NCBI GenBank assembly: GCA_023898525.1
Contig: CP060227.1
Span: 173,634-237,633 of the forward strand
Reading direction: 5' to 3'
DNA: 64,000 bases
Source: Candidatus Nomurabacteria bacterium
Lineage (GTDB): Bacteria; Patescibacteriota; Minisyncoccia; Phycocordibacterales; UBA918
A program made the translations under genes and the position numbers. Position 1 is the stretch's first letter. Each line of letters opens with the position of its first letter. Under the pieces are notes generated by a model. It did no database searches. It was given only the letters and a program-made list of their open reading frames with translations, and was not told the origin of the DNA. This document shows positions 16,357 to 51,563 of the stretch, piece by piece.

Positions 16357-17377
16357 ATTCTTCAAAATTTTCAATCACAATCCCCGTACCCCTGATTACC
16401 GAACGGAGGGGGTCGGGTACTACAATAACCGGAACCTGGAGACTTTCTTCAAGTAAAGTAGACAAGCCCGGTATCAACGCCCCACCACCACAGACATGAA
16501 CACCACGCTGCATAACATCGGCCAGGACTTCCGGTGGTGTTTTTTCAAGGACAGCTTTAGTGGTTTCCACAATGCTATCAATCTGATTTACTACCGCATC
16601 TCTAACATCACTAGCAGTGATGATTACTTCACGTGGTAACCCAGTCATAACGTCACGTCCTCGAATAATCATTTCATTACCACTTCCCTCCGGATTAACT
16701 GAAGCTAAGGCAATTTTAGCATCTTCTGCCGTCTTTTCACCGACATAAACTTTGAATTGATCACGAACATAAGACGAAATAGCAGCATTCAAATGATCAC
16801 CGGCCACCCGTAAATTTTTGGCCACCACAATACCATTAAGAGAAATAACCGCGATATCGGTAGTTCCTCCACCGATATCAATAATCATGTTACCGGCTGC
16901 TTTATTTATTGGTAATTTGGCGCCAATAGCGGCAGCCATAGGTTCTTCAATTAGAAACACATCACGAGCACCAGCGTTCTTAGCCGCATCTCGAGCCGCT
17001 CGCATTTCCACATTAGTGATACCAGACGGTACACCAATCAAAATTCGTGGCGGAACTAATGAACGAGTTTCGTTTTGTACTTTATTTATCAGGTAACCAA
17101 GCATTTCCTCGGTTACTTCAAAATCAGAGATCACACCATCCACCAATGGTCGCACCACTTCAATGTGCTGTGGCGTACGCCCCTGCATAGTTTTAGCCTC
17201 GATACCGACCGCCACTAACTGGCCAGTTTTCTTATTAACCGCTACTATCGTTGGCTCATTTAGTACAATACCCTTGTTTTTAACGTAAACCAGAGTATTA
17301 GCCGTACCTAGGTCAATAGCCATATCAGTTGAAACAACCGATAAAAGCTTGTTGAAATTTTGCGATAACCTACCCAT
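16304..17377 (-). CDS. mreB: rod shape-determining actin homologue MreB (with acidic C-terminal extension)
   Basis: MAIDLGTANTLVY (phosphate-1), DIGGGTTDIAV (phosphate-2), GGGALIPGL (adenosine motif). Confidence 0.9.
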   Translation of the reverse strand: MGRLSQNFNKLLSVVSTDMAIDLGTANTLVYVKNKGIVLNEPTIVAVNKKTGQLVAVGIEAKTMQGRTPQHIEVVRPLVDGVISDFEVTEEMLGYLINKVQNETRSLVPPRILIGVPSGITNVEMRAARDAAKNAGARDVFLIEEPMAAAIGAKLPINKAAGNMIIDIGGGTTDIAVISLNGIVVAKNLRVAGDHLNAAISSYVRDQFKVYVGEKTAEDAKIALASVNPEGSGNEMIIRGRDVMTGLPREVIITASDVRDAVVNQIDSIVETTKAVLEKTPPEVLADVMQRGVHVCGGGALIPGLSTLLEESLQVPVIVVPDPLRSVIRGTGIVIENFEEYEEILIDNEGELSPYQS

Positions 17378-21059: not shown

Positions 21060-22742
21060 TTATGCTGGATTACGTTTTTTTTGTAAATCTAGAATATGCT
21101 TGATGACGCGACGTAAATACAACTCAAAAGTCTCTCCTTGCTCATAGATAATACCCTGCTCATAGCGCCAACCATTCATGTAGTCTGTGATGCTTTGTCT
21201 GATTTCTTGAGTAGCTCCCTCAAAACGACCGGCTAGTAAAAGTGGGATCTGCAACCCAGCTATCTTCTTAAAGAGAGGGTGCTCCCGTCCACTTGGGCCG
21301 GTACCAAACAGTCCACTTTTCTTGAACAGACTCCAATCCGACAATAACTGCTCTAAGCCACTGTCAATTTCTGCGGTATACAAAGGATTGGTAACGCCAG
21401 CTTCAGTTTTTGAGCTATCAGCTAAATCATTAGGTGTAAGGTTGCGCTTTCGGTCAGCCAGCGAAGGAACATTTGATTGTACCGGTAAAGTAGATTCTGC
21501 TGACGGCTGTCTTGGCGGAGTTGGTGGTGTAACCGCTACCGGAGTAACTGGGTTTGGGGCTGATGGCACAGTATTAATCTGAGATGCTGGAACATTCTCT
21601 GGTGTTGGTGAAATTGGTTCCGGCTCCACCATCGGCATAGGAGTGACCTCAACCACCGGTCTAGGTGGTATAACAGGCTCTACCGCGGCCGGGGGCGGAG
21701 TTGGTGGTGGTGTAACTACTACCGGTTTTGGTGTGACCGGAGCAACCGATTGAGAGGTAACAGGCTCAGGCGGTGTAGAAACGGGAGTTGGTGTTGAGGC
21801 TGGTTGTGGTGTAGTCTGGGCAACTTCTGAAACAACAGACGGTTTTTGCTTAGCTTGTTCTTTCATTTCAATTGCCTTTTGAACTGCTACAAAGGCAGTT
21901 TCCAATCTCTGCATTGCCACGTCTATACCTCCAACTCCACCATTCATTTTCTTCATCGCATCCAAAAGTGCGTTCATGTATTCGCGACCAACTTCATTAT
22001 CTATATCTACCAAATTCACTGGATTACCAACTTTTTGGTTTACTACCGCTTTAATTTCTCGAATACGATTTAGGTAGCTTGACTGTTCTGGAGATGGTGT
22101 AGGAGCGGCGGCAGGTGTAGATGGAGCCGGTTGCACCGGTGAAGTGGTTTGTGTCGGCGGATTTGTCGACGCTGGTGAAGCCGAAGCAGGGGGCACTGGT
22201 GTGGTAGTAGCCGTGTCAGAAACTGACGGAGTAATTGGTGGAGTCACCTTCGGTATATCAGCTGGCGCAGCCATCGTAACAGGAGAAACTGTCACCTGAT
22301 CAGCTTGTTTTACTTCTTCAAGAGGTTTTTGACTTACTGCAGGGGACACCTCTCCAGTCTGAGTCTGAGCTGAAGCTGGAGGAGGCACTGGCTGAGTATC
22401 CAAAGCTTTAGCTTCAGAAGCAGATACGGTTGGTTTACGAAAAGTTGGAGCTGGACGCATACTACCAAAAGGTAAGTCTGGTTCGGGAGCAGGTGCCACC
22501 TCAGGCTCTGTCGGTTTTTTGATAGCCGCCACCGGAGTAATATTGTGTGCCGAAAGTTTCTGCTCTAAAGAAATTCTTACCGACTCATCTTGCCCTCCGT
22601 TTTTATATAAAAAGACAAGGTCGCGTAATTCATTTTTTTCAGCTGAGGACAACTCACTCTGACGAATACCAGCCAAGAGAGCGGTGATACCTGCCTGTGT
22701 AGTAAAGTCATAACTTGAAACCAAGGAACCAGTTTTATCCAT
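21060..22742 (-). CDS. hypothetical protein with about 300-aa Pro/Thr/Ala/Val/Ser-rich low-complexity core
   Basis: 560 aa, no signal peptide, structured N- and C-terminal domains separated by PTPP/PVTP-rich repeats. Confidence 0.4.
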   Translation of the reverse strand: MDKTGSLVSSYDFTTQAGITALLAGIRQSELSSAEKNELRDLVFLYKNGGQDESVRISLEQKLSAHNITPVAAIKKPTEPEVAPAPEPDLPFGSMRPAPTFRKPTVSASEAKALDTQPVPPPASAQTQTGEVSPAVSQKPLEEVKQADQVTVSPVTMAAPADIPKVTPPITPSVSDTATTTPVPPASASPASTNPPTQTTSPVQPAPSTPAAAPTPSPEQSSYLNRIREIKAVVNQKVGNPVNLVDIDNEVGREYMNALLDAMKKMNGGVGGIDVAMQRLETAFVAVQKAIEMKEQAKQKPSVVSEVAQTTPQPASTPTPVSTPPEPVTSQSVAPVTPKPVVVTPPPTPPPAAVEPVIPPRPVVEVTPMPMVEPEPISPTPENVPASQINTVPSAPNPVTPVAVTPPTPPRQPSAESTLPVQSNVPSLADRKRNLTPNDLADSSKTEAGVTNPLYTAEIDSGLEQLLSDWSLFKKSGLFGTGPSGREHPLFKKIAGLQIPLLLAGRFEGATQEIRQSITDYMNGWRYEQGIIYEQGETFELYLRRVIKHILDLQKKRNPA

Positions 22743-22826: not shown

Positions 22827-23126
22827 CTAAAGTATAGAGCTCACTTCGGATTGAAAAGCTTTCATTTCTTCGTCCAACAGTTCACAAAAATCCGGATATT
22901 TTTCACAAAGGATTTCAAAAAAGTTCTCTGCTCCCACGTTTAGATTAATAAAAGACTCAAATTCTCGAGAAGTTTCTTCAGGGGTAATGGCTAGATATTT
23001 CATTAGCGCACTTTGAAAAACCAGAGTACCTACTTCCTCCGCGAATGCCTGCTCTACTTCGCCCTGAACAGCACTTTGGTCTGATGGTGATTGCGTGTCT
23101 CCAATTTTATTGTTGTCTGTTATCAT
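22827..23126 (-). CDS. small acidic hypothetical protein (99 aa)
   Basis: ORF in operon position between the giant protein and the PT-rich protein. Confidence 0.3.
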   Translation of the reverse strand: MITDNNKIGDTQSPSDQSAVQGEVEQAFAEEVGTLVFQSALMKYLAITPEETSREFESFINLNVGAENFFEILCEKYPDFCELLDEEMKAFQSEVSSIL

Positions 23127-23135
23127 AATTTTATT

Positions 23136-26100
23136 TTATCTATAAACATTTTGATTAGCTAATGTTTGAGCACTATGCTCCACAACAAATCGAGAAAACA
23201 GATCAGATATCTTTGTGTTATCTGTATATTGTAGACCAGACTGCTTTAAATTATTTATTGCATCCATCCAAGCTACCGCTGCTTCGTACTTAATATTATG
23301 AACTTCACTAGAAGGAACAGTGTCTCTACCCAGGTAGTGCAGTTGACCACTTTCCGGTGCAGTATTGTTTAGCGCATGAATAAGATAGTCTCTACCGTAC
23401 TGATCATATAAGTACTGCATATCACCAAACTCCTTCATGGTCATATTCCCATACACAGACATAAAGCTGTCATAATGATTCCTAGCATCAAAGAAGTCAT
23501 AGGCTCCGGCATCAACTTGATTCGTTGCTTCATTTATAGCTGCGTTTAGATTTTTTTCACTACCAAAAACCTGTAGAGCATAATCCTTGTACTCTGGGCT
23601 ATGGAAGAAATTGTCAGAATTATAAGTTTCCGGCGGCTGGATATTAGCCGAGACAACGTTTTCTACACTAGGTAAATTTAAATTTGTTTGATCTACTTCA
23701 AATTTCAAAACCGAGTGGATATCCCAAGCTGGATTACGAGCAGCTTCAGCCGTAAGTGCTTGCCAGACCCCAGCCTTTAATTCATATGGTGCTATACTAG
23801 GATCTTTGGCAACCAATTCAGCTGCGACAGTTTGTGCATAGTCATTCATTGCCAAGGTCACCGGAGTTGAGGTGCCGGGCTTAGTGGCAAATTCAATTAA
23901 TGGTGATTCCTCGACCCTCTCAGCAATTTCACTTACTTGGATATCCGGATGATTGGCAGTAATAGGTATGACTTCTTCACTTGACCCATCCGCCACTACT
24001 TCTAGGTGACCGGAAGAAGGTGAAGTTGGAAGATCTATATCGTTTTTCTCAAGTTCAATTAACTTATTCAATTCCCCTTCTAAGGGACCTAAATTGATCT
24101 TATCTCCAGGATAAATTAATTCTGTATCATTGATATTGGCTAACTCACGCAAAACCTCATCGGCCCGAACTTTATCAAAGAGAGCGTCTAGCACTTGATT
24201 ACGCTCACTTGGTGACAAATCTGCCAACTCAGACTGATACCTGTCTTCTACAATATCCCAAAGAGTATCGCCCTTTACAACCGTATGAATATTCTCAACA
24301 TTTTCTACATTTGATGTAGTCTGATCTACCGCATGCTCTCGCCAAGCTTCTGCCACCTCGTTATTTAAGGCATTCTCAGCGGTTGAGTTTACCTCAGCGG
24401 TAGCCGAAGAAGCTAAGTCGGAAGCGTCGATTTTTTCTATACTACCAATCTCAACTTTAGTGATTGGACTTTCCTGCCACCAGTCAGTTTCGCCAAACTT
24501 ACCCTCCAGCTTCCCAAGCAGGGTCTCGGATAGATTATCGGCTGTCATATTAGGATGAAGCGCCAACAGGTTGCTGGTATTTAGACGCAGGTAGCTTTCA
24601 ACTTGTACTAGGTTTTCACCGCTTAAATCTTCCGCGCCAACCACAGACAAATCTTTAACCAGAGTACTGAATTGTTCATGACTAAAGCTATAATTAGGTA
24701 CAGTAATCTTATCAACCACTTCAGTTACACCAACATTTCCTGCTACTGCTTCAGTAGCCGAAGAAGTTTCCTCACCACCAAGCATGTCAAGAATCTCAGG
24801 ATTTTTATCCAAAGCTGCTGCTATTTGTTCACTGGTGGCATCTGTCGCCTTACTTACACTTTCAGAAATTTGATCAGCAGAGCCCAGATGAGACATTCCA
24901 TAGCCGGTCAATCCTCCGGCTAGGAAACCGGCTCCTATAGTAGCTGCTGTTCTTTGGCTCTGTGCAGCCTTAGCTTTTCGCAATGCCTGCATTACTTCCT
25001 CTTCATAATTATCTATATCATCGACTGAAAAATCTTCGCCTTCCATAAGCTTCTCAGCTTTTGCCTCAGCTTTCCTGACCTTAAAACTCATTACCTGATC
25101 AGCACCCAAGGCAGCACCGGAGCTGATAGCCATACGAGCACCAGCCACACCAGCCGCCGCAGCACCAGCCAGTACACCCGCGCCGAGTATAATTCCCCCT
25201 CTGACCCACCACTTGGTCTTTTTAAGTTTCATCATTACTCTGCCCACCGTCTTTGCCTGCTCTTCAGTCAGAATCTCAGTTTTCTGTATATCCAACCTTT
25301 CCTTACCAGGTCGCAAAACGAACTTTTTTAAGAATGCCTGATCCACTTTTTGTTCATAGCCTGTTGGTTTAGGAGCTTTTTCTTTATTGTAGGAGGCAAG
25401 ATAGGCTGCCGTCTCACTTTCAAGCTTACTCTTATGAAACTCTTCGTTCACAGACAACTTACCCCTCTCTTTCATTGCTAAGCGTAATTTCCTTGTATAT
25501 TCCTTTCTGGATACTTTGTACTTATCTTCCAAGACTTTGATGTTGTCAGGTAATTTAGGCTTTAAACCAAGGAACTTTTTACCCCAATCTTTAATCTTAC
25601 CAAGTCCACCACGATTAGCGTAATAATTTTTTACCGCATCTTCGTACTCTTTTTTGTTGTCTTGATATGCTTCCTTGAACGTCTTATCAGTTCCCTCAAC
25701 TTTAGAAAACAAAAGATCTTGTTTAGCTTTTTGATAATCGGTTAGTTCTATTTCTTTTTCGTCTTTTGTTTTAAGTTCAACTTTTTCTTTATCGCTTAAT
25801 TCAAGAGTTTCCACAGCTTCGTTATCCATGTCCACAAATTCAGCTTCTTTTTTAGTAGCGACATCACTTTCTTCAAGGTCAAAAAGTTTATCTGGAGTTG
25901 ATTTATCAATATTTATAACTTCCCCTTCACTTTCGGTACTTAAGTCGTCTTCTGAACCTACTTCTGCATCAACTACACCGTCCCTAAGCTTAATCTCTTC
26001 CTGGAGAGTTGGAATTTCATCAGCCTTTGGTTCAAATTTTTCATCCGCATCTCCATCGCCACCATTTTCCTTATTATCTGTCTTCTGAACACCATCAATT

Positions 26101-27413
26101 TCATCATTACTTTCAACTTCTTCCATCTCACCAACTTTTTTTGACAAACTTGCAATTACAGATTCCAGCTTTACTTTTTTCTCTTCTAATTCATTACACA
26201 CTTCCTCGGAAGCTTCATTTTTTACAACTTCATTAAATTCTTTTACTATATTTTGACCCTCTTCAATAAATCGTCTTACTGTGGGTGTGGGTGTGGGTGT
26301 AGGTATTTGAGATCTTGTGTTTTTAGCAACACTTTTAGCTTTATTTACTGTATTTTCAAATTTAGACTCAACTAAGCTAAACTCTGAAACAATTTCACTC
26401 TTTCTTTCTGCAAAATCCTGAACCTCTTCTGCTTTTGTATCTGCTACTTCTTTTTGATCTTCAGCACCATTTGACTTACTGGCATCTGTACGTCTGTTTT
26501 TATATTTAAAGTTTTCATCTTTTATTTTTTTAATCAAATCGTATAGACCGTACTTCAATTCTACTAATTTATCTCGAAACGTCCTAGAATTTTGTACATC
26601 ACTATTACTATTATTCAGCAAATTATTAAATTCAACCTCTTTTTGTTTTAAAAGTTTAAGCTTAGAAACCAGAGTTTCTGGTAAGCCATTCAAAATAGGC
26701 TCTGGTAGACTATCTAGATCACCGCCAAAGTTAAGCCTTAAAAAGCCATTATTGAAGTTATCAAAAACTCCAGCGATTTTATTTTTTAGATTCGCATATT
26801 TATCTTCGTTTTTTTCTGGTTGAGCATTACCTTCTTCATTTATACCTTCTCTTTTTTCTTTAATCTCATCCAACTTATCTTTATTTTCTTCAATTAGTTG
26901 ACTAATTGAGCTTATCGTCTCATTGAATAATCGAAAACTCCTCGGAAGTCGATTCTCTATATGATTCTTTAGCAAATTTTGATCAGATTCCCTTAGAAGG
27001 TTGCCTATGGCCATTAGGACAGAATTTGCAGTCACTATATGACTATTCATGAGATGAATAGAATCTCTTAATAATTCAGCATCTTCTTTTATTCTTTCAA
27101 ACTCTTGTCTAGAATTCTCAAGCAACTCTTTTAACTCCCCTACATCATCAGGCAGTTTTTCAGCATCAATTTCTAATTTTAGTTCAACCTCATCTATCTG
27201 AGGTTCTTCTAAGGGCTCGTCTACGGGGTCAGTATTTACTTCTACACCTGAATCTTGCTCGACTGTATTATCGCCATTAGACCTTTCAACCGTTTCTGTA
27301 TCAGAGTTTTCATTTGATTCATTTTCGCCAACATCCTCAACAATCTCAGCGTCCACTATTTCGGCTCCAGGTTTATTAGCTTTTTGAGACAAACTTTCTA
27401 TTCTCATAGACAA
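23136..27413 (-). CDS. giant (1425 aa) coiled-coil membrane protein with C-terminal LysM domain
   Basis: about 720-aa acidic coiled-coil N-terminal part (PTPTPT linker), TM segments (WWVRGGIILGAGVLAGAAAAGVAG; TAATIGAGFLAGGLTGYG), LysM-like HTVVKGDTLWDIVEDRY...IYPGDKINL. Confidence 0.5.
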   Translation of the reverse strand: MSMRIESLSQKANKPGAEIVDAEIVEDVGENESNENSDTETVERSNGDNTVEQDSGVEVNTDPVDEPLEEPQIDEVELKLEIDAEKLPDDVGELKELLENSRQEFERIKEDAELLRDSIHLMNSHIVTANSVLMAIGNLLRESDQNLLKNHIENRLPRSFRLFNETISSISQLIEENKDKLDEIKEKREGINEEGNAQPEKNEDKYANLKNKIAGVFDNFNNGFLRLNFGGDLDSLPEPILNGLPETLVSKLKLLKQKEVEFNNLLNNSNSDVQNSRTFRDKLVELKYGLYDLIKKIKDENFKYKNRRTDASKSNGAEDQKEVADTKAEEVQDFAERKSEIVSEFSLVESKFENTVNKAKSVAKNTRSQIPTPTPTPTVRRFIEEGQNIVKEFNEVVKNEASEEVCNELEEKKVKLESVIASLSKKVGEMEEVESNDEIDGVQKTDNKENGGDGDADEKFEPKADEIPTLQEEIKLRDGVVDAEVGSEDDLSTESEGEVINIDKSTPDKLFDLEESDVATKKEAEFVDMDNEAVETLELSDKEKVELKTKDEKEIELTDYQKAKQDLLFSKVEGTDKTFKEAYQDNKKEYEDAVKNYYANRGGLGKIKDWGKKFLGLKPKLPDNIKVLEDKYKVSRKEYTRKLRLAMKERGKLSVNEEFHKSKLESETAAYLASYNKEKAPKPTGYEQKVDQAFLKKFVLRPGKERLDIQKTEILTEEQAKTVGRVMMKLKKTKWWVRGGIILGAGVLAGAAAAGVAGARMAISSGAALGADQVMSFKVRKAEAKAEKLMEGEDFSVDDIDNYEEEVMQALRKAKAAQSQRTAATIGAGFLAGGLTGYGMSHLGSADQISESVSKATDATSEQIAAALDKNPEILDMLGGEETSSATEAVAGNVGVTEVVDKITVPNYSFSHEQFSTLVKDLSVVGAEDLSGENLVQVESYLRLNTSNLLALHPNMTADNLSETLLGKLEGKFGETDWWQESPITKVEIGSIEKIDASDLASSATAEVNSTAENALNNEVAEAWREHAVDQTTSNVENVENIHTVVKGDTLWDIVEDRYQSELADLSPSERNQVLDALFDKVRADEVLRELANINDTELIYPGDKINLGPLEGELNKLIELEKNDIDLPTSPSSGHLEVVADGSSEEVIPITANHPDIQVSEIAERVEESPLIEFATKPGTSTPVTLAMNDYAQTVAAELVAKDPSIAPYELKAGVWQALTAEAARNPAWDIHSVLKFEVDQTNLNLPSVENVVSANIQPPETYNSDNFFHSPEYKDYALQVFGSEKNLNAAINEATNQVDAGAYDFFDARNHYDSFMSVYGNMTMKEFGDMQYLYDQYGRDYLIHALNNTAPESGQLHYLGRDTVPSSEVHNIKYEAAVAWMDAINNLKQSGLQYTDNTKISDLFSRFVVEHSAQTLANQNVYR

Positions 27414-27441
27414 ATAATTATTGGTTTAATCATACCACACC

Positions 27442-30213
27442 CTATAAAACCAGCGGCGTCTCTTTAGCATACCGTGCGGATATCTCAGCTTCGACCTCAG
27501 CCCGCGGACGGCCGTGGGTATGATAACTTAATTCGATCATTTCATTGATTCTGGTGAGATCAGTCGGTGGTGGTGGCATGGTCTTAATATTGAAAGGCTT
27601 GGTCGGTGTGCCGTTGGCCAAAATACGCACCAAGGCATTGCGGTTTGGAATATTCATTAAATTGCTGGCATTAAATGGTGGTGAGAACTGATGTTCCAGG
27701 AACTGAGCATCCTCGGGACCAACCCGAAAAGCCGCCATTGAACCCACGTTGCCAAACACAGCATCTTTAATGTTGGGATCAAGCTGGGCAATAAATTGAT
27801 GAGCAATAGTGAGGCCAAGCTTATACTTACGCGCCTCAGACAAAATCGCCGATATGGAATTGGTTGAGACATTCTGAAACTCATCCATATGGAGATAAAA
27901 CGGTGCAAACCCTCGAGTTGGATCATCCACTCGAGACAATGCCGCCATCAGTATCTTGCCAACAATTATCATACCAATCAGATTGGCATTAATTTCTCCC
28001 AATCGACCTTTCGATAGATTGACTAAGAGAATCTTACGTTCGTCCATTACCTGCCGGAAGTTAAAGGCTGATTTTTGTTGCCCGATGATTGGCCGCATGT
28101 AGTCATTGGCGGTAAAAACATCGAATTTAGATACGATATAAGGCACAATATTCTCAAGCGACGCTTCACCACCAGCCTTTGAAGCAATTTCCCGCCAAAA
28201 CTGTACAACCACAGGGTTGGTAGCCTTTTCTAGTTTCATTCGACGATATTTAGCGTCGGCCATAACTCGCGAGATATCCATCAAAGTATTGCCGCTGTCA
28301 GGGTCTTCCATGACTAACAAAGTGGCGTTACGGAAGTATTGTTCAAACATTGGCCCCATTGACTCCGGATTGGCTCCGTAGAGCTTTTGGAAAATTGAAA
28401 ACAGCTCATTGACCACAAAGGTCTTCTGCTCCGGCTTGGTAATATCATACTCAAGCATGTTGAGTGCGAGGATGCGGTCGAGTCGCGATGGGTCAAAGTA
28501 AATAACATCCTGTTCTCGCTCTTTTGGTACCGCACTGAGCACATCCTCAATATCGGTTCCATGAGGATCTATCATACACACACCATCACCCCGCAAAATA
28601 TCTTGCGTTATCATATTTTTCATTAGCGTGGTCTTACCAGTACCAGTCTGTCCAATGATATAGAAGTGTCGCAAACGGTCTTCGTTGGTTATGTAGATTT
28701 CACGTTCTGAATTGCGATGATTATTTATACCAAGCAATGTTCCTTCGGTTGGCATGTCATTGGGAGCCGCTGCCGTGTTGGCATGCGATTGTTTAAACTG
28801 CGGTGAAGATAGAACACCATTACCTGGAAAATGAATCAAAGTTGATAATTCAGTCAAGTTGAACGGAATAATCGCTTTAGTCCAAAATTCGCGAAAAGCA
28901 AAAGCTTTCTGAAGTGATTTAAGACTTCCTTTGGCCCGCTTAGGCGCAAAACTATTACCATCAACCAGATCAAATTGATTGAAGGTAGATTCAATCTCTC
29001 CTAAAATTTGCTCGGCTCTAGCGCTGTCTCGAGCTGAAACTGCTATCCGAATATTTGTTTCTACAATCTCTGACTTGACCTTTCGGGAGAATACTTCAAT
29101 TTTATCGGACTCTATGGTCGATGATGAACCTTCACCCTCTTTTGGTTTTTTGCTAAAGATTAAATCAGACAAAGAACCCATAATCTCACCACCAATAGTG
29201 CTACGCGAAATTGCCTCACCCGCTTTCATACCTTTCTGCATGTTTTTGATCACTTCGCTGTAACTTTTGTTGTATTTTTTTTGCGGATAACGCATCAAAA
29301 ACTGCACCGCCGCACCGCCGCCTTCGCGCTCAATTTTAGAAAAAGCATTTAAAATAACCGCCAGCGGATCAGAGGTAAAGCCGTCATGCGTACGAATTGG
29401 GTAAATTGGATGCTTTTTTAACTTTAACTCACTGATCAAAGTTACTCCTTGATCAACAAAGATATTATAATCATGCGCCTGCACTGTCAGTTCAGCGTGT
29501 GGAAACAGCGACAATACCTGCTTTTCAAATAAGGTGACAAACTGATTAGGAACCGCAACATAAAATACGATATCATCACTAAAATCCGCCACCGCAATCT
29601 CAATAGCAAAATGATTGTGCGACTGCTCCGAACCAATATTTCTAAGGCCGGCAAACAACTGCTCCATCATCCCGATCAGCTCTGATAACTGATATTCTCG
29701 CCCATCAGCTGCTTTAGTCTCCGGTAAAGTTAGCTCATAAAGTGTCATATGAAGTAGGTGCCAAGTCGGCATCCCCTCTTTTATATCCTGAATATTTACC
29801 CCAGACCGAATTTGCTCCACCAAACGACGATGGACTTGGTCGATAATGTAGGCGTTGTCGGTTTTTTCTAGAACCGACAACGCATTTCTAATCCCTTTTT
29901 CTAGCGCAATATGTACTATTTCTTCCACCGGATCTGCCGCTAAAGCCACCTGCTCGCTGGCCACCGCCACATCAGCTTCAGCAAATTTGTGTTTAGGATC
30001 AAGGACTGACCTAGGAGTAAAAGAAGCGTATTCTCTAATCTCCTGCTTACCAACAGTTTCGATATCAGCCTGGTCTACTTCCGGACTACGAGCCAAAAGC
30101 TCGCGCTCACGCGCCGCAATTTGCTCACGCAGATAACTAATCTCCTCTTCCGGAGAAGTGAATTTCTTAGGTATTCCCTCTGGCATAGCCACATTGTATC
30201 TTAGTTTTGACAC
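27442..30213 (-). CDS. type IV coupling protein-like ATPase (VirD4/TraG/TraD family homologue), 923 aa
   Basis: Walker A IIGQTGTGKTTL, Walker B YLHMDEFQN, then ARKYKLGLTIAHQFIAQL (T4CP-like RxxG...Q...QL region); no VirB-type partners seen nearby. Confidence 0.55.
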   Translation of the reverse strand: MSKLRYNVAMPEGIPKKFTSPEEEISYLREQIAARERELLARSPEVDQADIETVGKQEIREYASFTPRSVLDPKHKFAEADVAVASEQVALAADPVEEIVHIALEKGIRNALSVLEKTDNAYIIDQVHRRLVEQIRSGVNIQDIKEGMPTWHLLHMTLYELTLPETKAADGREYQLSELIGMMEQLFAGLRNIGSEQSHNHFAIEIAVADFSDDIVFYVAVPNQFVTLFEKQVLSLFPHAELTVQAHDYNIFVDQGVTLISELKLKKHPIYPIRTHDGFTSDPLAVILNAFSKIEREGGGAAVQFLMRYPQKKYNKSYSEVIKNMQKGMKAGEAISRSTIGGEIMGSLSDLIFSKKPKEGEGSSSTIESDKIEVFSRKVKSEIVETNIRIAVSARDSARAEQILGEIESTFNQFDLVDGNSFAPKRAKGSLKSLQKAFAFREFWTKAIIPFNLTELSTLIHFPGNGVLSSPQFKQSHANTAAAPNDMPTEGTLLGINNHRNSEREIYITNEDRLRHFYIIGQTGTGKTTLMKNMITQDILRGDGVCMIDPHGTDIEDVLSAVPKEREQDVIYFDPSRLDRILALNMLEYDITKPEQKTFVVNELFSIFQKLYGANPESMGPMFEQYFRNATLLVMEDPDSGNTLMDISRVMADAKYRRMKLEKATNPVVVQFWREIASKAGGEASLENIVPYIVSKFDVFTANDYMRPIIGQQKSAFNFRQVMDERKILLVNLSKGRLGEINANLIGMIIVGKILMAALSRVDDPTRGFAPFYLHMDEFQNVSTNSISAILSEARKYKLGLTIAHQFIAQLDPNIKDAVFGNVGSMAAFRVGPEDAQFLEHQFSPPFNASNLMNIPNRNALVRILANGTPTKPFNIKTMPPPPTDLTRINEMIELSYHTHGRPRAEVEAEISARYAKETPLVL

Positions 30214-30231
30214 ATAAAAGCAAGACTATCC

Positions 30232-30278
30232 CCTTAATAGAACTGCCCCGCGCCTACGGCGCGGGGCAGTTCTATTAA
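30232..30278. promoter_or_regulatory. 22-bp perfect inverted repeat (CTTAATAGAACTGCCCCGCGCC-TAC-GGCGCGGGGCAGTTCTATTAAG) between the mreB-like gene and the T4CP-like gene
   Basis: seen directly; GC-rich stem in AT-rich context, no U-tract. Confidence 0.5.
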
Positions 30279-30282
30279 GTCA

Positions 30283-31299
30283 CTATCGTTTAGCTAGCAC
30301 TGTCCGTTTGTAGGTATCAAGGTGCTCTAATGCAATACCAGTACCGGTAGCCACACAAAAGAGTGCTTGGTCGGCCAATTGCGCCTTAACACCGGTACGC
30401 CGCTTGATTAATTCGGGAAAATTGCGCAACTGTGAAGTTCCACCAGTCATTATTATTCCACCATCGATAATATCCGAGGCTAGTTCCGGAGGAGTGTCTT
30501 GAAAAACATCCTTAATAGCTTTGACCATTTCTCGCAATTCTCGGCCAATTGCCCGCACTACTTCATTGGTACGCATCTCGGTAGTACGCGGCAAACCAGA
30601 CAAGACATCACGCCCTTTAATATCCATCACCAACTCCTCTTCCAAGGGCAAGGCCGAGCCGATAGTTATCTTAATTTCTTCAGCCGTTTTTTCACCAATA
30701 GATAAATTGCGAGTTTTTTTCACATAATCAACAATCGCTGTATCTATCCGGTTACCGGCGCATTTAACTGAGTTGGAAGCCACGATACCTCCCAAAGAAA
30801 TAACCGCCACATCGATCGTACCACCACCAATATCAATAATCATATGCCCCTGCGCCTCATAGATCGGCACCCCAGCCCCAATCGCCGCCAATATCGGCTC
30901 TTTTACCACATAGGCGTTCTTGGCCCCCGCCTTGATTGTCGCTTCCACCACAGCCCGTCTTTCGGTCGAAGTGACTCCCGCCGGCACTGACACCATCACA
31001 TCCGGTTTAAAAATATTGAATCGACCAAGGGCTTTGCGCAAAAAGTAGCGAAGCATAGCCTCAGTCACCCGATAGTCCGCAATTACTCCATCCTTCATCG
31101 GACGGTAAGCACGAATCGTATCTGGCGTACGACCAATCATCCGTTTTGCTTCAGCTCCAACTGCCACCACTCGGTTATCATCAGACACCGCCACCACCGA
31201 TGGTTCGTTTAGTACAATCCCGTGACCAGGTACAAACACCAGAATGCTGGTAGTACCAAGATCTATGCCAATTTTTGGGTTCAAATTATTCCAGGCCAT
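30283..31299 (-). CDS. second MreB-like actin homologue
   Basis: KIGIDLGTTSILVFV, DIGGGTIDVAV, GGIIMTGGTSQL; start set at MAWNNLNPKIGIDLG (ATG at 31299) rather than the ORF-track start 31377. Confidence 0.7.
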   Translation of the reverse strand: MAWNNLNPKIGIDLGTTSILVFVPGHGIVLNEPSVVAVSDDNRVVAVGAEAKRMIGRTPDTIRAYRPMKDGVIADYRVTEAMLRYFLRKALGRFNIFKPDVMVSVPAGVTSTERRAVVEATIKAGAKNAYVVKEPILAAIGAGVPIYEAQGHMIIDIGGGTIDVAVISLGGIVASNSVKCAGNRIDTAIVDYVKKTRNLSIGEKTAEEIKITIGSALPLEEELVMDIKGRDVLSGLPRTTEMRTNEVVRAIGRELREMVKAIKDVFQDTPPELASDIIDGGIIMTGGTSQLRNFPELIKRRTGVKAQLADQALFCVATGTGIALEHLDTYKRTVLAKR

Positions 31300-31465
31300 G
31301 TTTTGGGTATATATTACCTTCTTTCTCGAAAACAACAAAGGGTGGGCTAAAAAAATACCAAGGGTAACCCTAGGCAAGCCTGCCTAGGGTTACCCTTGGT
31401 ATTTCCCTTGGTATTTTTAGCCTTGGTATTCTACACTCTTTGACCACTAGCACCGTATAGCATAT

Positions 31466-32983
31466 ATGCTATACTGTGTTTCTATGTTAAATATTGGACA
31501 CAAGATAGCAGACTTACGAGAAACCAAGGGTATTACTCAGACCGAATTAGCCAAGACATTAAAAACCACCCAAAGTGCCGTAGCCAGAATGGAAGCTGGC
31601 AAGCAAAATATCAGCGCTGACATGCTCAAACGAATCGGTAAGGCGCTAGGCAAGAATCTGATCACTCTCTCCCCTGGTACAGTAAATGTAGAAATTGAAG
31701 GTGGACACAAACTAAACGGTACTATAGAAACCAACACCTCTAAAAATGGCGCTGTTGGCCTACTCTGTGCCAGCTTACTAAACCGTGGTACCACCACCCT
31801 GCACCGCATGCCCCGAATTGAAGAAGTACATCGCATCGTTGAAGTTCTAGAGAGCATCGGTAGTAGAGTTGAGTGGCAAGGTAGCACCATCACGATTACT
31901 CCACCCAAGAAATACCAACTCAACAAAATTGACGTTGAAGCTGCCAAGCGAACCCGCAGCATTGTCATGTTTATCGGTCCACTAATTCATCATTTTGCAA
32001 AATTTAACCTACCACAATCCGGTGGCTGCAAACTCGGTAGCCGCACCGTCAAGCCGCACTTTTTCGCCTTAGAGAACTTTGGTGTAAATATAAAGGCCAC
32101 AAATGACAGCTTTGAAATAACTAAAAGCAACAAGAGACCTTCAGAAGTCATCCTTTACGAATCAGGTGACACGGTTACTGAAAACGCACTGTTTGCCGCC
32201 GCCTTGACTCCTAACACTACCGTCATCAAATACGCCACCGCTAATTACATGGTGCAAGAAATCTGCATCTTTCTTCAACTACTAGGCGTAAAGATAGATG
32301 GCATTGGCACCACCACCCTAACCGTTACTGGAATATCAAATATTAATAAAAATGTTGAATACACCTTATCTGAAGACCCGACCGATAGTATGTTTTTCTT
32401 GGCTGCCGCTATCGTCACCAACTCAGCTATCACCATTACTCGCTGTCCGATTGATTTTCTAGAACTGGAGCTCTTAAAACTAGAAAAAATGGGCTTTAAG
32501 TACACTAAGTCCAAGCCTTACTTATCGCACAATAATTTCACCAAGCTGGTTGATATTACGACAAAACCATCAAAACTGGTCGCTCTTCATGAAAAAATTC
32601 ACCCTTCTGTTTACCCAGGCTTAAACATCGACAACCTTCCCTTCTTCGCCGTTATCGCTACGCAAGCTAAGGGTCAAACCCTGATTCACGACTGGGTCTA
32701 TGAGAAACGCGCCATTTATTTTACCGAACTCGAAAAACTAGGAGCTGACACCGTACTAGCTGACCCGCACCGCATCTTTATCACCGGACCAACCGAACTC
32801 AAAGCTAACGAACTTATCTGTCCACCTGCCCTCCGCCCGGCTACCATCCTTCTCATTGCCATGCTTGGAGCCAAGGGTCATAGCGTGCTTCGCAATATCT
32901 ACAGCATCAACCGTGGTTACGAAAACCTAGTAGAGCGCCTCGCTTCGCTCGGCGCTCAGATTAAGTACTTGGATGAGTTTTAA
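31466..32983 (+). CDS. murA: XRE-type HTH domain fused to UDP-N-acetylglucosamine 1-carboxyvinyltransferase (MurA)
   Basis: N-terminal HTH_3 (IGHKIADLRETKGITQTELAKTLKTTQSAVARMEAGKQNIS); EPT-fold body with catalytic-Cys loop SGGCKLGSRTVKPH aligning to E. coli PGGCTIGARPVDLH; C-terminal NRGYENLVERLASLGAQI. Confidence 0.6.
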   Translation: MLYCVSMLNIGHKIADLRETKGITQTELAKTLKTTQSAVARMEAGKQNISADMLKRIGKALGKNLITLSPGTVNVEIEGGHKLNGTIETNTSKNGAVGLLCASLLNRGTTTLHRMPRIEEVHRIVEVLESIGSRVEWQGSTITITPPKKYQLNKIDVEAAKRTRSIVMFIGPLIHHFAKFNLPQSGGCKLGSRTVKPHFFALENFGVNIKATNDSFEITKSNKRPSEVILYESGDTVTENALFAAALTPNTTVIKYATANYMVQEICIFLQLLGVKIDGIGTTTLTVTGISNINKNVEYTLSEDPTDSMFFLAAAIVTNSAITITRCPIDFLELELLKLEKMGFKYTKSKPYLSHNNFTKLVDITTKPSKLVALHEKIHPSVYPGLNIDNLPFFAVIATQAKGQTLIHDWVYEKRAIYFTELEKLGADTVLADPHRIFITGPTELKANELICPPALRPATILLIAMLGAKGHSVLRNIYSINRGYENLVERLASLGAQIKYLDEF

Positions 32984-38099: not shown

Positions 38100-38705
38100 G
38101 AACACACCGTGTTTCAAGCCTGATATACTAAATACAATGAGTGTACCAGACAAAAGAACATATGCCGATCGTGCCGAGTATTTGAAAAAAGCTGTTTCTG
38201 ACAGAAGAAGAAAACTGAAGGAAATGGCAATTGAATACGGGGGTGGCAAATGTCAAATTTGTGGTTATAAAAAATGCAAGAGAGCTTTAAGCTTTCACCA
38301 CAAAGATGCTAACAAGAAAGACTTTGGTCTTTCTGCAAAAGGACTCACTAGATCTTGGAATAAGATCAAGAAAGAACTTGATAAATGCATCCTAGTTTGT
38401 GCAAATTGCCACATGGAACTACACGATGGTATCACGCAGCTTCCTACTGAAAAGTAGGTCGAAAACGAGGTGAATTGCTGGAAGCCTTAGCAAGTAATGT
38501 TGCAGGTAATCAGCAGCCAAGCTTGAGTTGAAAAACTCTTGAAGGTTCAGAGACTATCCTTTATGGAGTACCCAGCTCTAGATTTAATTTTCAAAATTTT
38601 GAAAATTAAATCTAGAGCTGGGGAAGCGCCTCGCATCCAACAACAGCAAAAAACTGAAAAGGATGATGATATAGTCCACCCCTTTTAGAAATATTAGGAC
38701 AAGTG
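38100..38705 (+). mobile_element. group I self-splicing intron with embedded HNH homing endonuclease ORF
   Basis: conserved P (AATTGCTGGAAG 38473-84), Q (AATCAGCAGCC 38508-18), R (GTTCAGAGACTA 38545-56), S (ATGATATAGTCC 38665-76) elements; 26-bp perfect P8-position hairpin 38571..38623; intron preceded by U and ends in G. Confidence 0.75.
38137..38457 (+). CDS. HNH (His-Me finger) homing endonuclease encoded in the 5' peripheral region of the group I intron
   Basis: CQICGY...ALSFHHKD...CANCHMELH (four Cys plus HH...N...H); 107 aa from ATG 38137 (ORF track extends upstream via GTG into the tRNA exon). Confidence 0.7.
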   Translation: MSVPDKRTYADRAEYLKKAVSDRRRKLKEMAIEYGGGKCQICGYKKCKRALSFHHKDANKKDFGLSAKGLTRSWNKIKKELDKCILVCANCHMELHDGITQLPTEK

Positions 38706-38749
38706 TAACCAATTGGTCGTAGGTTCGAATCCTACCGGCGGAGCAAATC

Positions 38750-45900: not shown

Positions 45901-45917
45901 AATAAATACATTCTACC

Positions 45918-47234: not shown

Positions 47235-47374
47235 ATGTTTTTATGATTATACGCTAAATGGATAAAAAACGAAGAGCCTGAAATCATTTGCTTACAAGAA
47301 ATAAAAGCCAACCTCAGTGATGAGATTAAAAAGATCCACTGATATTACTTATATTTTAATTCCGCCGAGAAAAA

Positions 47375-49796: not shown

Positions 49797-49798
49797 AA

Positions 49799-51547: not shown

Positions 51548-51563
51548 GGGAAATTAAAATTGA

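Follow-up and report, generated by a model that had tools for sequence, protein, structure and literature searches.

A chromosomally fixed coupling-protein-family ATPase and its variable modular partner in a Candidatus Nomurabacteria genome

The locus lies within a 64-kb stretch of the genome of a Candidatus Nomurabacteria bacterium (contig CP060227.1); the whole stretch is referred to here as the window. The following genes and features are discussed.

30283..31299, minus strand: mreB2, a second MreB-family actin of 338 aa, assigned by Pfam and NCBIfam
30233..30279, minus strand: perfect inverted repeat of 22 nt with a 3-nt loop, a terminator-like or stabiliser hairpin
30193..30198, minus strand: -10-like hexamer with the sequence TACAAT, 7 nt before the ATG of the ATPase
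27442..30186, minus strand: T4CP-family ATPase of 914 aa, delimited by public gene calls and homologue alignments
23136..27413, minus strand: modular partner protein of 1423-1425 aa, an acidic N-terminal part of ~570 aa and modules A-D
24849..25688, minus strand: partner module A (aa 576-855), basic juxtamembrane helices and Gly/Ala-rich hydrophobic segments
23940..24320, minus strand: partner module C (aa 1032-1158), LysM-like
23154..23642, minus strand: partner module D (aa 1258-1420), a helical domain
22827..23126, minus strand: small acidic protein of 99 aa, a distant DUF5663 relative
21060..22742, minus strand: P/T-rich protein of 560 aa with conserved modules at 1-60, 221-280 and 455-560

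The ATPase, actin and giant (here, partner) reading frames share the minus strand, as the initial annotation had stated, and the small acidic and P/T-rich proteins that it placed downstream are both present. The ATPase frame was listed as 27442..30213 on the minus strand, 923 aa from a GTG; gene and strand stand, while public gene calls and homologue alignments favour the shorter product of 914 aa from the ATG at 30186. The same sources prefer the ATG at 31299 for mreB2 (listed as 30283..31377, 364 aa from a TTG) and a length of 1423 aa for the partner, which is 1425 aa as a listed ORF. The partner starts 34 nt past the stop codon of the ATPase, or 28 nt past it if counted from the TTG of the listed partner ORF, and the small acidic gene starts 9 nt past the stop codon of the partner.

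By direct reading of the translation, the ATPase contains the Walker A motif GQTGTGKTT, the Walker B motif FYLHMDEF and then ARKYKLGLTIAHQFIAQL, so that all three reported motifs, including the downstream AHQ..AQL segment, are found; they are invariant or nearly so in alignments of 41-61 homologues. The protein is laid out as a helical N-terminal extension (residues 1-~130), a DUF8128 alpha/beta domain (~145-450) and a P-loop motor (~480-905). Residues ~586-715, which separate Walker A (512-520) from Walker B (765-770), form an all-helical insertion placed like the T4CP all-alpha domain. Residues 1-700 harbor no hydrophobic segment, and the one membrane helix that Saccharimonadia homologues retain at the N-terminus has been lost in this lineage.

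The 914-aa ATPase is a chromosomally fixed member of the T4CP (VirD4/TrwB/TraD) family and belongs to its DUF8128-bearing branch. In Pfam, DUF87 and TrwB_AAD_bind both pass their cut-offs, and NCBIfam yields weak matches to TraD/VirD4-like families, including one of residues 509-826 to the VirD4-like CD1115 family, and to the archaeal DNA-translocating ATPase CedD. The top sequence matches in the PDB are TrwB and DotL. With hhalign, the ATPase aligns over 601 columns with an Embleya plasmid T4CP that adjoins Replic_Relax (probability 99.96, E 4e-39) and does not match plasmid VirB4. The fold model (pLDDT 77) matches TrwB with a TM-score of 0.57-0.64 over about 410 columns and also matches VirB4 and HerA, with no FtsK among the best 50 fold matches. 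FtsK and SpoIIIE are absent from the Pfam and NCBIfam results, and an FtsK gamma domain was not detected. The description of the ATPase as T4CP-like rather than FtsK-like is borne out by Pfam, NCBIfam, PDB, hhalign and fold comparisons. T4CPs of the DUF8128 branch on Actinomycetota and Bacillota plasmids adjoin the relaxase-like Replic_Relax inside monoderm conjugation clusters.

At least 567 relatives of the ATPase were confirmed among GTDB species genomes, and the family comprises 5,242 clusters of 50% identity at E <= 1e-30. Across relatives its identity is about as high as that of the frr, def and proS genes of those loci, and it lies among mre, mur, PBP and translation genes, in agreement with the view that it is core to the organism; purifying selection on it is very strong. 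VirB4, VirB6 and relaxase families, already reported as not visible, are absent from the 64-kb window (ORFs of at least 150 aa and the gene table), and family scans of the window ORFs revealed no integrase, relaxase or T4SS gene near the ATPase and no xer recombinase family among the ORFs scanned. That T4CP homologues of Patescibacteria are orphans has been described before (2025; PMC12102498): only 148 of 5,713 such homologues lie near virB4. The initial suggestion of an apparatus other than a classical T4SS is weakened on the scale of a 64-kb window, as about 80% of Patescibacteria genomes have a virB4 cluster elsewhere, usually near dnaA (PMC12102498). For Southlakia epibionticum, epibiotic growth is reported to need the T4SS genes but not the t4cp homologue (PMC12102498), which argues against an obligate T4SS partnership of the ATPase. 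The partner genes appear new to the literature.

The second actin is a genuine MreB (Pfam MreB_Mbl, E 2.4e-127; NCBIfam MreB, 429 bits with a cut-off of 293) and, as first described, is separate from the mre-linked copy. It is 41% identical to that copy, mreB1 (16304..17377), after which come mreC (15385..16374) and then a transpeptidase of the PBP2 type; among relatives, mreB2 is 78-95% identical. The perfect inverted repeat reported between the actin and ATPase genes begins 3 nt past the mreB2 stop codon, with 22-nt arms (30233-30254 and 30258-30279) that are 100% complementary across a 3-nt loop; it lacks a clear U-tract. The 96-nt intergenic RNA has a predicted folding energy of -52.5 kcal/mol, and relatives carry GC-rich, non-homologous hairpins at the equivalent position. 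A TAnnAT hexamer is found at -20 to -8 (mostly -12 to -15) in 58 of 77 related loci, distant ones included. From this element and the lack of a Shine-Dalgarno sequence before the ATPase ATG, we infer that the ATPase operon is probably transcribed from a promoter of its own, with a very short leader or none. In the close clade, 55 of 57 loci have mreB2 no more than 3.5 kb upstream of the ATPase, and it stays nearby in four loci with one to three inserted ORFs; outside the clade, one of eight loci has it. Adjacency of mreB2 is limited to loci in which the ATPase is at least 55% identical, and Saccharimonadia homologues have no MreB neighbour. This distribution looks like clade-wide synteny, and the adjacency is little informative since synteny in the close clade extends over 20 kb, from fmt to mreB1. 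mreB2 is probably its own transcription unit and a mere neighbour of the ATPase module.

The partner begins with an acidic part (D+E 26-31% in blocks 1-200 and 400-600), and residues 1-~570 are genome-specific, without a homologue in even the closest relatives. Across relatives, the partner varies from 204 to about 1850 aa with shuffled domains or is absent, so the picture of a conserved giant protein fails. Hydrophobic segments are clear at 741-759 and weaker and Gly-rich at 822-840, where homologues have three. The initial annotation gave two TM helices. Exactly two spans would put the N- and C-terminal parts on one side of the membrane, which makes its topology with an extracytoplasmic C-terminal part internally inconsistent, and one or three spans would rescue that placement. 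Iterative HMM searches match module A in 27 distinct loci (L072, L077 and L081 among them), and its consensus has a weak match to ApoL (E 8e-4, below cut-off). In module C, the strand motifs YTVxxGDTLW and IYPGxKINL are split by a helical insertion of ~45 aa. LysM scores 18 bits in the whole partner (cut-off 20.9) and 25.8 bits in the isolated module, over the first 12 profile positions only, and is supported in three of 20 members; the wording "LysM-like" is fair. Module D always forms the very C-terminal end, and short partner proteins without TM segments in other loci end with it too.

The small acidic protein, with 20 acidic and five basic residues, scores 19-21 bits against Pfam DUF5663 (cut-off 23.7), and its consensus covers positions 7-83 of the 84 in the profile. 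Its gene family follows the partner in 29 distinct loci, L072 and L077 among them, and is present in 27 of the 65 informative loci; it co-occurs only with partners that carry membrane or LysM modules, never with soluble partners of N and/or D modules only. The suggested check of synteny gives a divided answer: the mreB2 neighbourhood is kept in the close clade and largely lost outside, while the string of ATPase, partner and small acidic gene recurs in distant lineages. Gaps from the ATPase to the next ORF are 0-30 bp. Partner modules (A, B, C, D or N) lie next to the ATPase in 41 of the 65 informative loci, including distant lineages with other neighbours; in twelve loci the partner is TM-less, with N and/or D modules only. 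No recognisable partner is present in 24 of the 65, and the P/T-rich gene directly follows the ATPase in ten. In L072 and L077 the triad is found again, flanked by recJ and RNase H-comEC, a context that represents a single syntenic lineage of four loci. One MAG has the triad twice. The co-transcriptional arrangement of the three genes is upheld, with the pairing present in lineages whose other neighbours differ, and gene order suggests that the ATPase is functionally linked to the genes downstream of it rather than to the actin gene. Throughout the syntenic clade, the P/T-rich gene directly precedes holB; it is absent after the triad in L072 and L077; its membership in the ATPase module is uncertain.

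Tentatively, and with somewhat less than even confidence, we favor a model in which the ATPase, the partner and the small acidic protein form a coupling-complex-like membrane unit, with mreB2 as a separate housekeeping neighbour. The ATPase is assumed to be a hexamer, like its relatives TrwB, VirB4 and HerA, and would be tethered to the membrane through the basic juxtamembrane region that is conserved in the partner. This protein would span the membrane via its Gly/Ala-rich segments and grip peptidoglycan via the LysM-like module, and the small acidic protein may act as an adaptor or chaperone. ATP hydrolysis would drive a macromolecule, protein or DNA, toward an envelope channel, most plausibly a Patescibacteria T4SS presumed to be encoded elsewhere in the genome and less plausibly the Gly-zipper segments of the partner itself. 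Precedents are DotL, which works together with a membrane protein, DotM, and with IcmS/IcmW as small acidic adaptors (PMC7251119), and Cagbeta, which functions with CagZ (PDB 8dol). The distribution of anchors also speaks for the model: the window ATPase has no membrane helix and has a partner, while the Saccharimonadia homologues have the helix and no partner. Counting against the model are the wholly unconserved cytoplasmic N-terminal ~570 aa of the partner, the loci in which it is missing and the weak LysM assignment. In addition, the TM-less partners cannot anchor the ATPase, and module D, if cytoplasmic in those proteins, is awkward after membrane segments and LysM in an N-in/C-out anchor.

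Alternatively, the variable partner may be a substrate or effector that is recognised by the ATPase through module D or the C-terminal LysM-like module, shielded by the small acidic protein as chaperone and passed to a secretion channel, with the Gly-zipper hairpin and LysM acting outside the cell, on the wall or a host cell. This reading is doubtful, yet it accounts for the extreme divergence and domain shuffling of the partner beside an ATPase conserved at 60-80%. Xanthomonas VirD4 substrates carry a C-terminal XVIPCD, to which the strictly C-terminal module D bears a formal resemblance. The restriction of the small acidic gene to membrane or LysM partners is expected of a chaperone shielding hydrophobic segments; module A weakly matches the pore-former ApoL; and a WHH/colicin-DNase toxin ORF elsewhere in the window indicates that the organism encodes a polymorphic-toxin-type nuclease domain. 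However, a T4CP normally serves many effectors, whereas the pairing here is one-to-one and is even duplicated as a pair. Module A has a conserved, strongly basic juxtamembrane stretch of the kind that resident membrane proteins typically carry; none of the partners yielded a toxin or enzymatic domain, and an immunity-like membrane protein is absent. The dispensability reported for the Saccharimonadia homologue (PMC12102498) speaks neither for nor against this reading.

A T4SS-independent DNA pump like FtsK/SpoIIIE or Streptomyces TraB, serving segregation or DNA uptake/export, is unlikely. T4CPs are DNA-dependent ATPases, and such a role would suit the weak CedD match, the housekeeping-level conservation, the site among cell-wall and division genes and the recJ/comEC context; against it stand the failure of FtsK/SpoIIIE to appear in the profile results or best 50 fold matches, the undetected gamma domain, the lack of xer among the scanned ORFs and the confinement of the recJ/comEC context to one lineage. 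Very unlikely is the apparatus of the initial annotation, an actin-guided, wall-tethered translocation or attachment machine of MreB2, ATPase and giant. The persistent adjacency and very strong constraint on mreB2 speak for it, but the hairpin past the mreB2 stop codon, the promoter-like hexamer, the block synteny and the near-absence of an MreB neighbour outside the clade speak against the actin as part of the module. Finally, the idea that the region is left over from an integrated conjugative element, or is a HerA-type defence system, is already largely refuted. Homologues are indeed found in 432 plasmid records, among them conjugative clusters and a Bacillus phage-plasmid, and PADLOC reports weak mad8 and HerA matches. 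These matches are limited to the P-loop, however, and the PADLOC partner genes are absent; composition is not atypical, integrase, relaxase and T4SS genes were not found nearby, and the site is stable between housekeeping genes across dozens of species, with the ATPase under very strong purifying selection.

Among known systems, FtsK/SpoIIIE and Streptomyces TraB share with the ATPase the ASCE superfamily of hexameric translocases and a chromosomal, housekeeping-like setting, but they are not the best match by sequence or fold and differ in N-terminal architecture. VirB4/TrwK give the best full-length Foldseek matches (E 5e-13) and share with the ATPase a two-domain layout, in which an alpha/beta domain at the N-terminus precedes the motor. 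Plasmid VirB4 (AAA_10) shows no sequence-profile similarity, and the T4CP-type helical insertion and Q-x-x-x-Q-L set the ATPase apart; kinship of the N-domains, with full-length TM-scores of about 0.3 in the modelled fold, is only suggestive. The Saccharimonadia t4cp homologue is of the same family (34-38% identical over residues ~190-905), orphan and chromosomal. It sits between pheST and gyrBA without a LysM or DUF5663 partner and consists of a TM helix, DUF8128, the motor and a disordered Pro/Ala/Thr-rich tail of 100-1200 aa ending in a conserved PGEVYVDExGNV motif, a tail that the window ATPase does not share. The DUF8128-bearing plasmid T4CPs (Embleya sp. NBC_00896 WP_331738717.1; Shouchella clausii WP_248290882.1) are homologous over about 600 residues, with the same Walker A/B and ARK...AHQxxAQL motifs, inter-Walker helical insertion, TrwB-like motor fold and DUF8128 N-domain. 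Unlike these, the window ATPase lacks an N-terminal membrane helix and adjacent relaxase-like or T4SS genes; it is chromosomal, single-site and vertically conserved, and is paired with LysM-like and DUF5663-like proteins. In the Legionella Dot/Icm (DotL, DotM, DotN, IcmS/IcmW, LvgA) and H. pylori Cagbeta-CagZ complexes, partner homology is not detected by sequence, DotL has its own membrane helices, and the complexes are encoded with a T4SS that they are proven to feed. They serve as the working analogy for the proposed unit, in that a T4CP motor acts together with a membrane partner and with small acidic adaptors or chaperones, some of them encoded adjacently.

The ATPase encoded next to mreB2, the second MreB gene of the window, is a conjugation-derived coupling ATPase now domesticated as a core gene, with a rapidly evolving set of partners that appears not to have been described before. 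The genes lie in a long minus-strand array of housekeeping genes with unremarkable base composition across the region, and the genes, ATPase motifs and inverted repeat listed in the initial annotation all exist in the window. One gene start was revised, as the ATPase previously read as 923 aa begins at the ATG at 30186, where homologue alignments and public gene calls also begin, and is 914 aa long. The protein is 100% identical to one from the Candidatus Nomurabacteria MAG GCA_020632175.1. In minus-strand reading order, the features are as follows.

30283..31299, minus strand: mreB2, the first gene
27442..30186, minus strand: ATPase, next after mreB2
23136..27413, minus strand: giant partner protein, next after the ATPase
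22827..23126, minus strand: small acidic protein of 99 aa, next after the giant
21060..22742, minus strand: P/T-rich protein of 560 aa, next after the small acidic protein
After the P/T-rich gene, minus strand, in order: holB, frr, rseP, proS
Past proS, minus strand: mreB1, mreC, PBP2-type transpeptidase
Then, minus strand: greA, class II tRNA synthetase, mraW, second PBP, Mur ligase
Divergent from mreB2: HTH-MurA fusion gene, 631-aa gene without Pfam match, def, fmt

The ATPase belongs to the type IV coupling protein (T4CP) family, for which the nucleotide-binding domain is the defining feature (PMC7431656). The Walker A and Walker B motifs and the ARK...AHQxxAQL motif after Walker B can be read directly in the protein, in agreement with the initial annotation, and GQTGTGKTT, HMDEF and ARKYKLGLTIAHQFIAQL are invariant or nearly so in 41-61 homologues. 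Among Pfam profiles, TrwB_AAD_bind scores 24.2 bits (cut-off 20.5), DUF87 scores 33.5 bits, above its cut-off and over the motor region only, and TraG-D_C, which is recorded for many close homologues, reaches 17.1 bits, below its cut-off of 22. NCBIfam adds weak TraD and VirD4-like matches, one of them over residues 509-826, and TrwB and DotL are the only matches in a PDB sequence search. On plasmids, tblastn returned homologues 22-26% identical over residues ∼145-905 in 432 records. In Embleya and Shouchella clausii plasmids, the homologue is directly followed by a Replic_Relax gene, and the clusters also hold a separate VirB4-like (AAA_10) ATPase, PrgI and a wall hydrolase. The Embleya protein, encoded between the VirB4-like ATPase and the Replic_Relax gene, matches T4SS-DNA_transf, TrwB_AAD_bind and TraG-D_C, and hhalign aligns the window family to it with a probability of 99.96 (E 4e-39, 601 columns), which makes the window family homologous to the coupling protein of a bona fide conjugative system. 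A further homologue is found not among conjugation genes but in a phage-plasmid (Bacillus albus plasmid NZ_CP040346.1), beside tail, lysis and arbitrium (AimR) genes, so phage-like elements use the family too.

Two features of conjugative coupling proteins were not seen. An N-terminal transmembrane domain is present in most T4CPs, not all, and a hydropathy scan of the ATPase revealed no hydrophobic segment before residue 732. Neither a VirB4, a VirB6 nor a relaxase family was found within the 64-kb window, which bears out the earlier description of the ATPase as an orphan. A survey from 2025 identified 5,713 VirD4-type homologues in 2,918 of 3,035 Patescibacteria genomes, only 148 of which are near virB4, so the orphan state is already known, and exaptation was raised there as a possibility (PMC12102498). 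As a virB4 cluster is present in about 80% of the surveyed genomes, often near dnaA (PMC12102498), the lack of a T4SS in the 64-kb window says nothing about the genome. In Southlakia, the homologue is dispensable for epibiotic growth, while the T4SS genes are essential (PMC12102498).

The predicted fold is consistent with this assignment. Of two AlphaFold models, the second was built from a more diverse alignment and has a mean pLDDT of 77. Foldseek against the PDB returned TrwK/VirB4 over the full length (E 5e-13), with a TM score of only about 0.3, and TrwB (TrwB-deltaN70) with TM scores of 0.57-0.64 and an rmsd of 5-6 Å over about 410 columns; HerA (TM 0.44-0.53), Cagbeta, DotL and a VirB4 C-terminal domain are also among the matches. 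T4CPs carry an all-helical insertion between the Walker motifs, and in the model eight helices without a strand (residues 586-715) occupy the same place, a likeness of placement rather than a residue-level superposition on the TrwB all-alpha domain. A helical extension of about 130-180 residues stands at the N-terminus in place of a membrane helix. The N-terminal domain is DUF8128, an accession precomputed for homologues, and may, on suggestive evidence, resemble the N-domain of VirB4.

Other identities for the motor were rejected. The initial annotation had named a best match to FtsK/SpoIIIE as a ground against its reading, and this does not apply: Pfam and NCBIfam give no FtsK match, no FtsK chain is among the best 50 Foldseek matches of either model, and neither a gamma/KOPS-binding domain nor a multi-span N-terminal anchor was found. 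A precomputed PF01580 match is recorded for one of 120 close homologues. For VirB4, profile similarity to its families (AAA_10, CagE_TrbE_VirB, TIGR00929) is limited to an NCBIfam match at the P-loop level (E 1e-3, 17 bits against a cut-off of 643), and hhalign against a plasmid AAA_10 VirB4 gives a probability of 0.8%; the fold likeness is full-length at low TM. HerA proteins linked to NurA or to defence combine a HAS-barrel and motor with a NurA, Sir2 or DUF4297 partner, and no partner nuclease is present here.

The family is widespread. A scan of one genome per GTDB species confirmed at least 567 relatives, and among 1.84 billion cluster representatives, searched exhaustively, there are 20,841, of which 5,242 at E <= 1e-30. 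Within Nomurabacteria, Kaiserbacteria and other Paceibacteria, the ATPase is 56-84% identical, a conservation similar to that of frr, def and proS in the same loci. Explanations by a defence system or a decayed mobile element are scarcely credible; PADLOC, including its HerA models, gave P-loop-level matches only and no partners. More distant members from Saccharimonadia (34-38% identical in alignment) begin with a single N-terminal membrane helix, continue with DUF8128 and the motor, and finish in a Pro/Ala/Thr-rich tail of some 100-1200 residues; in the five tailed members that were read over their whole length, the tail closes with a conserved PGEVYVDExGNV motif. Their genes are placed between pheST and gyrBA, without partner genes; neither the small upstream protein of these loci nor the plasmid loci matched the small-protein or partner HMMs. 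The window ATPase lacks the membrane anchor that its Saccharimonadia homologues carry.

The neighbourhood was compared in 80 related loci. Where the ATPase is at least 55% identical, synteny extends over the entire fmt-mreB1 block, so adjacency alone says little. The earlier expectation of a conserved neighbourhood holds for the ATPase, partner and small acidic protein, which recur together in more than one lineage, and fails for mreB2, which lies within 3.5 kb upstream of the ATPase in 55 of 57 loci at or above 55% identity and in only one of eight more distant ones. The second MreB itself is as described: it matches PF06723 over profile positions 3-326 of 327 (424.8 bits, Pfam E 2.4e-127), exceeds the curated cut-offs of NF010539 (429 bits, cut-off 293) and TIGR00904 (418.6 bits, cut-off 365.75), and is distinct from the mreC-linked copy, with 41% identity between the two. 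An actin-linked apparatus of MreB2, ATPase and giant protein, as first proposed, is nevertheless very improbable given this distribution.

The gap between the ATPase and the next ORF is usually 0-30 bp, and the length of that ORF ranges from 204 to about 1850 aa. In 41 of the 65 loci having at least 3 kb downstream, the next two ORFs include a partner that contains one or more of the modules described below. The pairing recurs in three loci of a distant lineage (L072, L077 and L081), with recJ upstream. L072 (8249..17321), where RNase H-comEC lies downstream, is the one such locus with flanks run through Pfam; the recJ / RNase H-comEC context of L076, L077 and L081 was inferred from ORF sizes. 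L076 belongs to the same lineage and has no partner gene. As comEC encodes a DNA-uptake channel, its proximity to the ATPase in that lineage could reflect plain synteny or hint at a DNA-related role. A housekeeping DNA pump, which this context and the conservation of the ATPase might favour, remains improbable beside the missing FtsK features. In six other distant loci, the ATPase follows secY-adk-map without a partner. Two paralogous ATPases occur in the MAG GFS_12610, each with a module-A partner and a small acidic gene, and the triad appears to have been duplicated there as a whole. These comparisons establish an operon-like, cross-lineage association of the ATPase with a modular partner and a small acidic protein.

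A word-index homologue search with the giant protein returned only the protein itself; homologues were therefore sought by position and with iterated HMMs on the fetched loci, which defined the following modules.

Module A, giant residues 576-855: basic juxtamembrane helices and Gly/Ala-rich hydrophobic segments
Module B, giant residues 887-1025
Module C, giant residues 1032-1158: LysM-like
Module D, giant residues 1258-1420: helical domain, always at the extreme C-terminus
Module N, in 13 other partners: N-terminal helical module

The first ∼570 residues of the giant have no homologue in any locus, and module N does not extend to the window protein. The earlier topology of two TM helices with an external C-terminal part is inconsistent with itself; of the giant's hydrophobic segments, that at 741-759 is clear and that at 822-840 weak, and its homologues show three Gly/Ala-rich segments. 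The proposed LysM domain survives as a LysM-like signal with marginal scores. The whole protein scores 18 bits against a gathering threshold of 20.9, isolated module C scores 25.8 bits against PF01476 with only positions 1-12 of 43 aligned, and the module C consensus scores 21.9 bits over positions 1-14 only. LysM is matched at E <= 0.01 by 3 of 20 module C members, and the terminal IYPGxKINL motif fits LysM by eye.

A member of the small acidic family (92-128 aa) comes after the partner gene in 29 distinct loci, among them L072 and L077. The window protein scores 19.0 bits against DUF5663 (PF18908) and the family consensus 21.1 bits, both under the cut-off of 23.7, with the consensus aligning profile positions 7-83 of 84; the protein is best described as a distant DUF5663 relative. 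Its gene accompanies partners having modules A and/or C and never soluble partners with modules N and/or D only. The P/T-rich protein has three conserved modules (aa 1-60, 221-280 and 455-560; up to 78% column identity) with variable Pro/Thr linkers between them, matches no family and shows no significant similarity to the Saccharimonadia ATPase tails. Its gene lies ahead of holB in most syntenic-clade loci and directly after the ATPase in ten loci; as it is absent after the triad elsewhere, it was not counted in the unit. No description of DUF8128, DUF5663 or the partner genes was found in the literature, and nothing was found there on FtsK/MreB in Patescibacteria.

The 22-nt inverted repeat between mreB2 and the ATPase is as reported, with arms 100% complementary, a 3-nt loop and a start 3 nt past the mreB2 stop, and is probably a terminator or stabiliser of mreB2. 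A strong hairpin follows mreB2 in many loci, and these hairpins are not homologous among themselves. A TAnnAT hexamer, mostly 12-15 nt ahead of the ATPase ATG with 7-10 nt remaining to the start codon, is present in 58 of 77 loci, distant ones among them, and no Shine-Dalgarno sequence accompanies it; the window copy of this -10-like hexamer is at 30193..30198. From the hairpin and hexamer, we infer that the ATPase has a separate promoter and heads its own, probably leaderless, transcription unit. The arrangement suggests that leaderless or near-leaderless mRNAs may be widespread in the lineage. No Rfam family reached its gathering score in the intergenic regions concerned.

mreB2 is similarly arranged, with TAATAT 13 nt before its ATG. 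Upstream of this -10-like hexamer, the region 31353..31430 between mreB2 and the divergent HTH-MurA gene contains a perfect palindrome of 24 nt (31353-31376 / 31381-31404). On the minus strand a T7 run comes after the palindrome, and three direct ATACCAAGG repeats come before it. The palindrome may serve as an operator bound by the HTH domain or as a terminator acting in both directions; within the window the 13-nt core is confined to that locus, and a dispersed repeat was rejected. The divergent gene (31466..32983, plus strand, 505 aa) encodes a MurA-like EPSP_synthase domain fused with an XRE-type HTH (HTH_3, E 1e-12), joining a DNA-binding domain to a cell-wall precursor enzyme, and is 63-86% identical in nearly every locus retaining it.

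Elsewhere in the window, a Group I intron (38388..38698, plus strand, within 38137..38745) matches the full Rfam model RF00028 with 69 bits. An ORF ending inside it (38137..38457, plus strand) encodes an HNH motif (…CILVCANCHMELHDG…), and a putative 3' tRNA half (T-arm GTAGGTTCGAATCCTAC and acceptor strand) directly follows at about 38700..38745. ARAGORN calls no tRNA anywhere in the window, and the 5' half was not located. WHH/colicin-DNase nuclease toxin domains occur in a 282-aa ORF (48948..49796, minus strand). Immediately upstream of this ORF are two large minus-strand ORFs without Pfam match, of 582 aa (49799..51547) and 1126 aa (51564..54944), and 48948..54944 may be a polymorphic-toxin-like locus. 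A minus-strand redox cluster (45040..48829) of a cytochrome b5/SH3 protein, a ferric-reductase-like FAD/NAD membrane protein and a multicopper oxidase is unexpected for a CPR genome. Three plus-strand ORFs are of the rve integrase/transposase type (38793..39815, 60338..61270 and 62670..63692); two have 340 aa and the same HTH_32, rve and rve_3 domains, and may be copies of one IS element.

The initial annotation's observation was confirmed, and its interpretation as a translocation or attachment apparatus is partly supported. By analogy, the ATPase, partner and small acidic protein may form a coupling-complex-like assembly, a tentative proposal given somewhat less than an even chance, in which the partner would tie the motor to the membrane and wall and the small acidic protein would act as adaptor or chaperone. 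This assembly fits the complementary distribution, whereby Saccharimonadia have the helix and no partner and Paceibacteria have the partner and no helix. Its weaknesses are the existence of TM-less partners, loci without a recognisable partner, a cytoplasmic N-terminus of the partner that is wholly unconserved, and weak LysM support. The main rival, which we consider less likely, takes the partner to be cargo of the ATPase; this role would suit a protein that is modular, evolves fast and has a recognition-like domain at its C-terminus, with a small acidic chaperone found only alongside hydrophobic segments. It is rather improbable that the TM-less motor, the Gly-zipper/LysM protein and the small acidic protein by themselves make up an envelope translocon independent of any T4SS. 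In that case a conjugative coupling protein would have given rise to a minimal system for secretion or DNA transfer that is specific to CPR, and the fast-evolving partner would supply both the channel and the wall or host contact.

A large part of bacterial diversity belongs to Patescibacteria, which are regarded as epibionts of other microbes; to our knowledge, their exchange of macromolecules with hosts is largely obscure. In nearly all of them, one or two coupling-protein homologues are retained well away from the T4SS genes, and the one published survey left the role of these homologues open (PMC12102498). The ATPase is under selection as strong as that on translation factors, and its link in Paceibacteria to a diversifying, putatively wall-binding membrane protein and a small acidic protein provides candidate partners for an orphan motor. 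The coupling assembly predicts docking to partner residues 576-735, adaptor binding and a localisation for the partner. For the attachment of a coupling protein to the envelope, the lineages offer a natural experiment, with a membrane helix and disordered tail fused to the motor in Saccharimonadia and separate partners encoded in Paceibacteria. Among known systems, the proposed assembly would be analogous to DotL-DotM-IcmS/W (PMC7251119) and to Cagbeta-CagZ.
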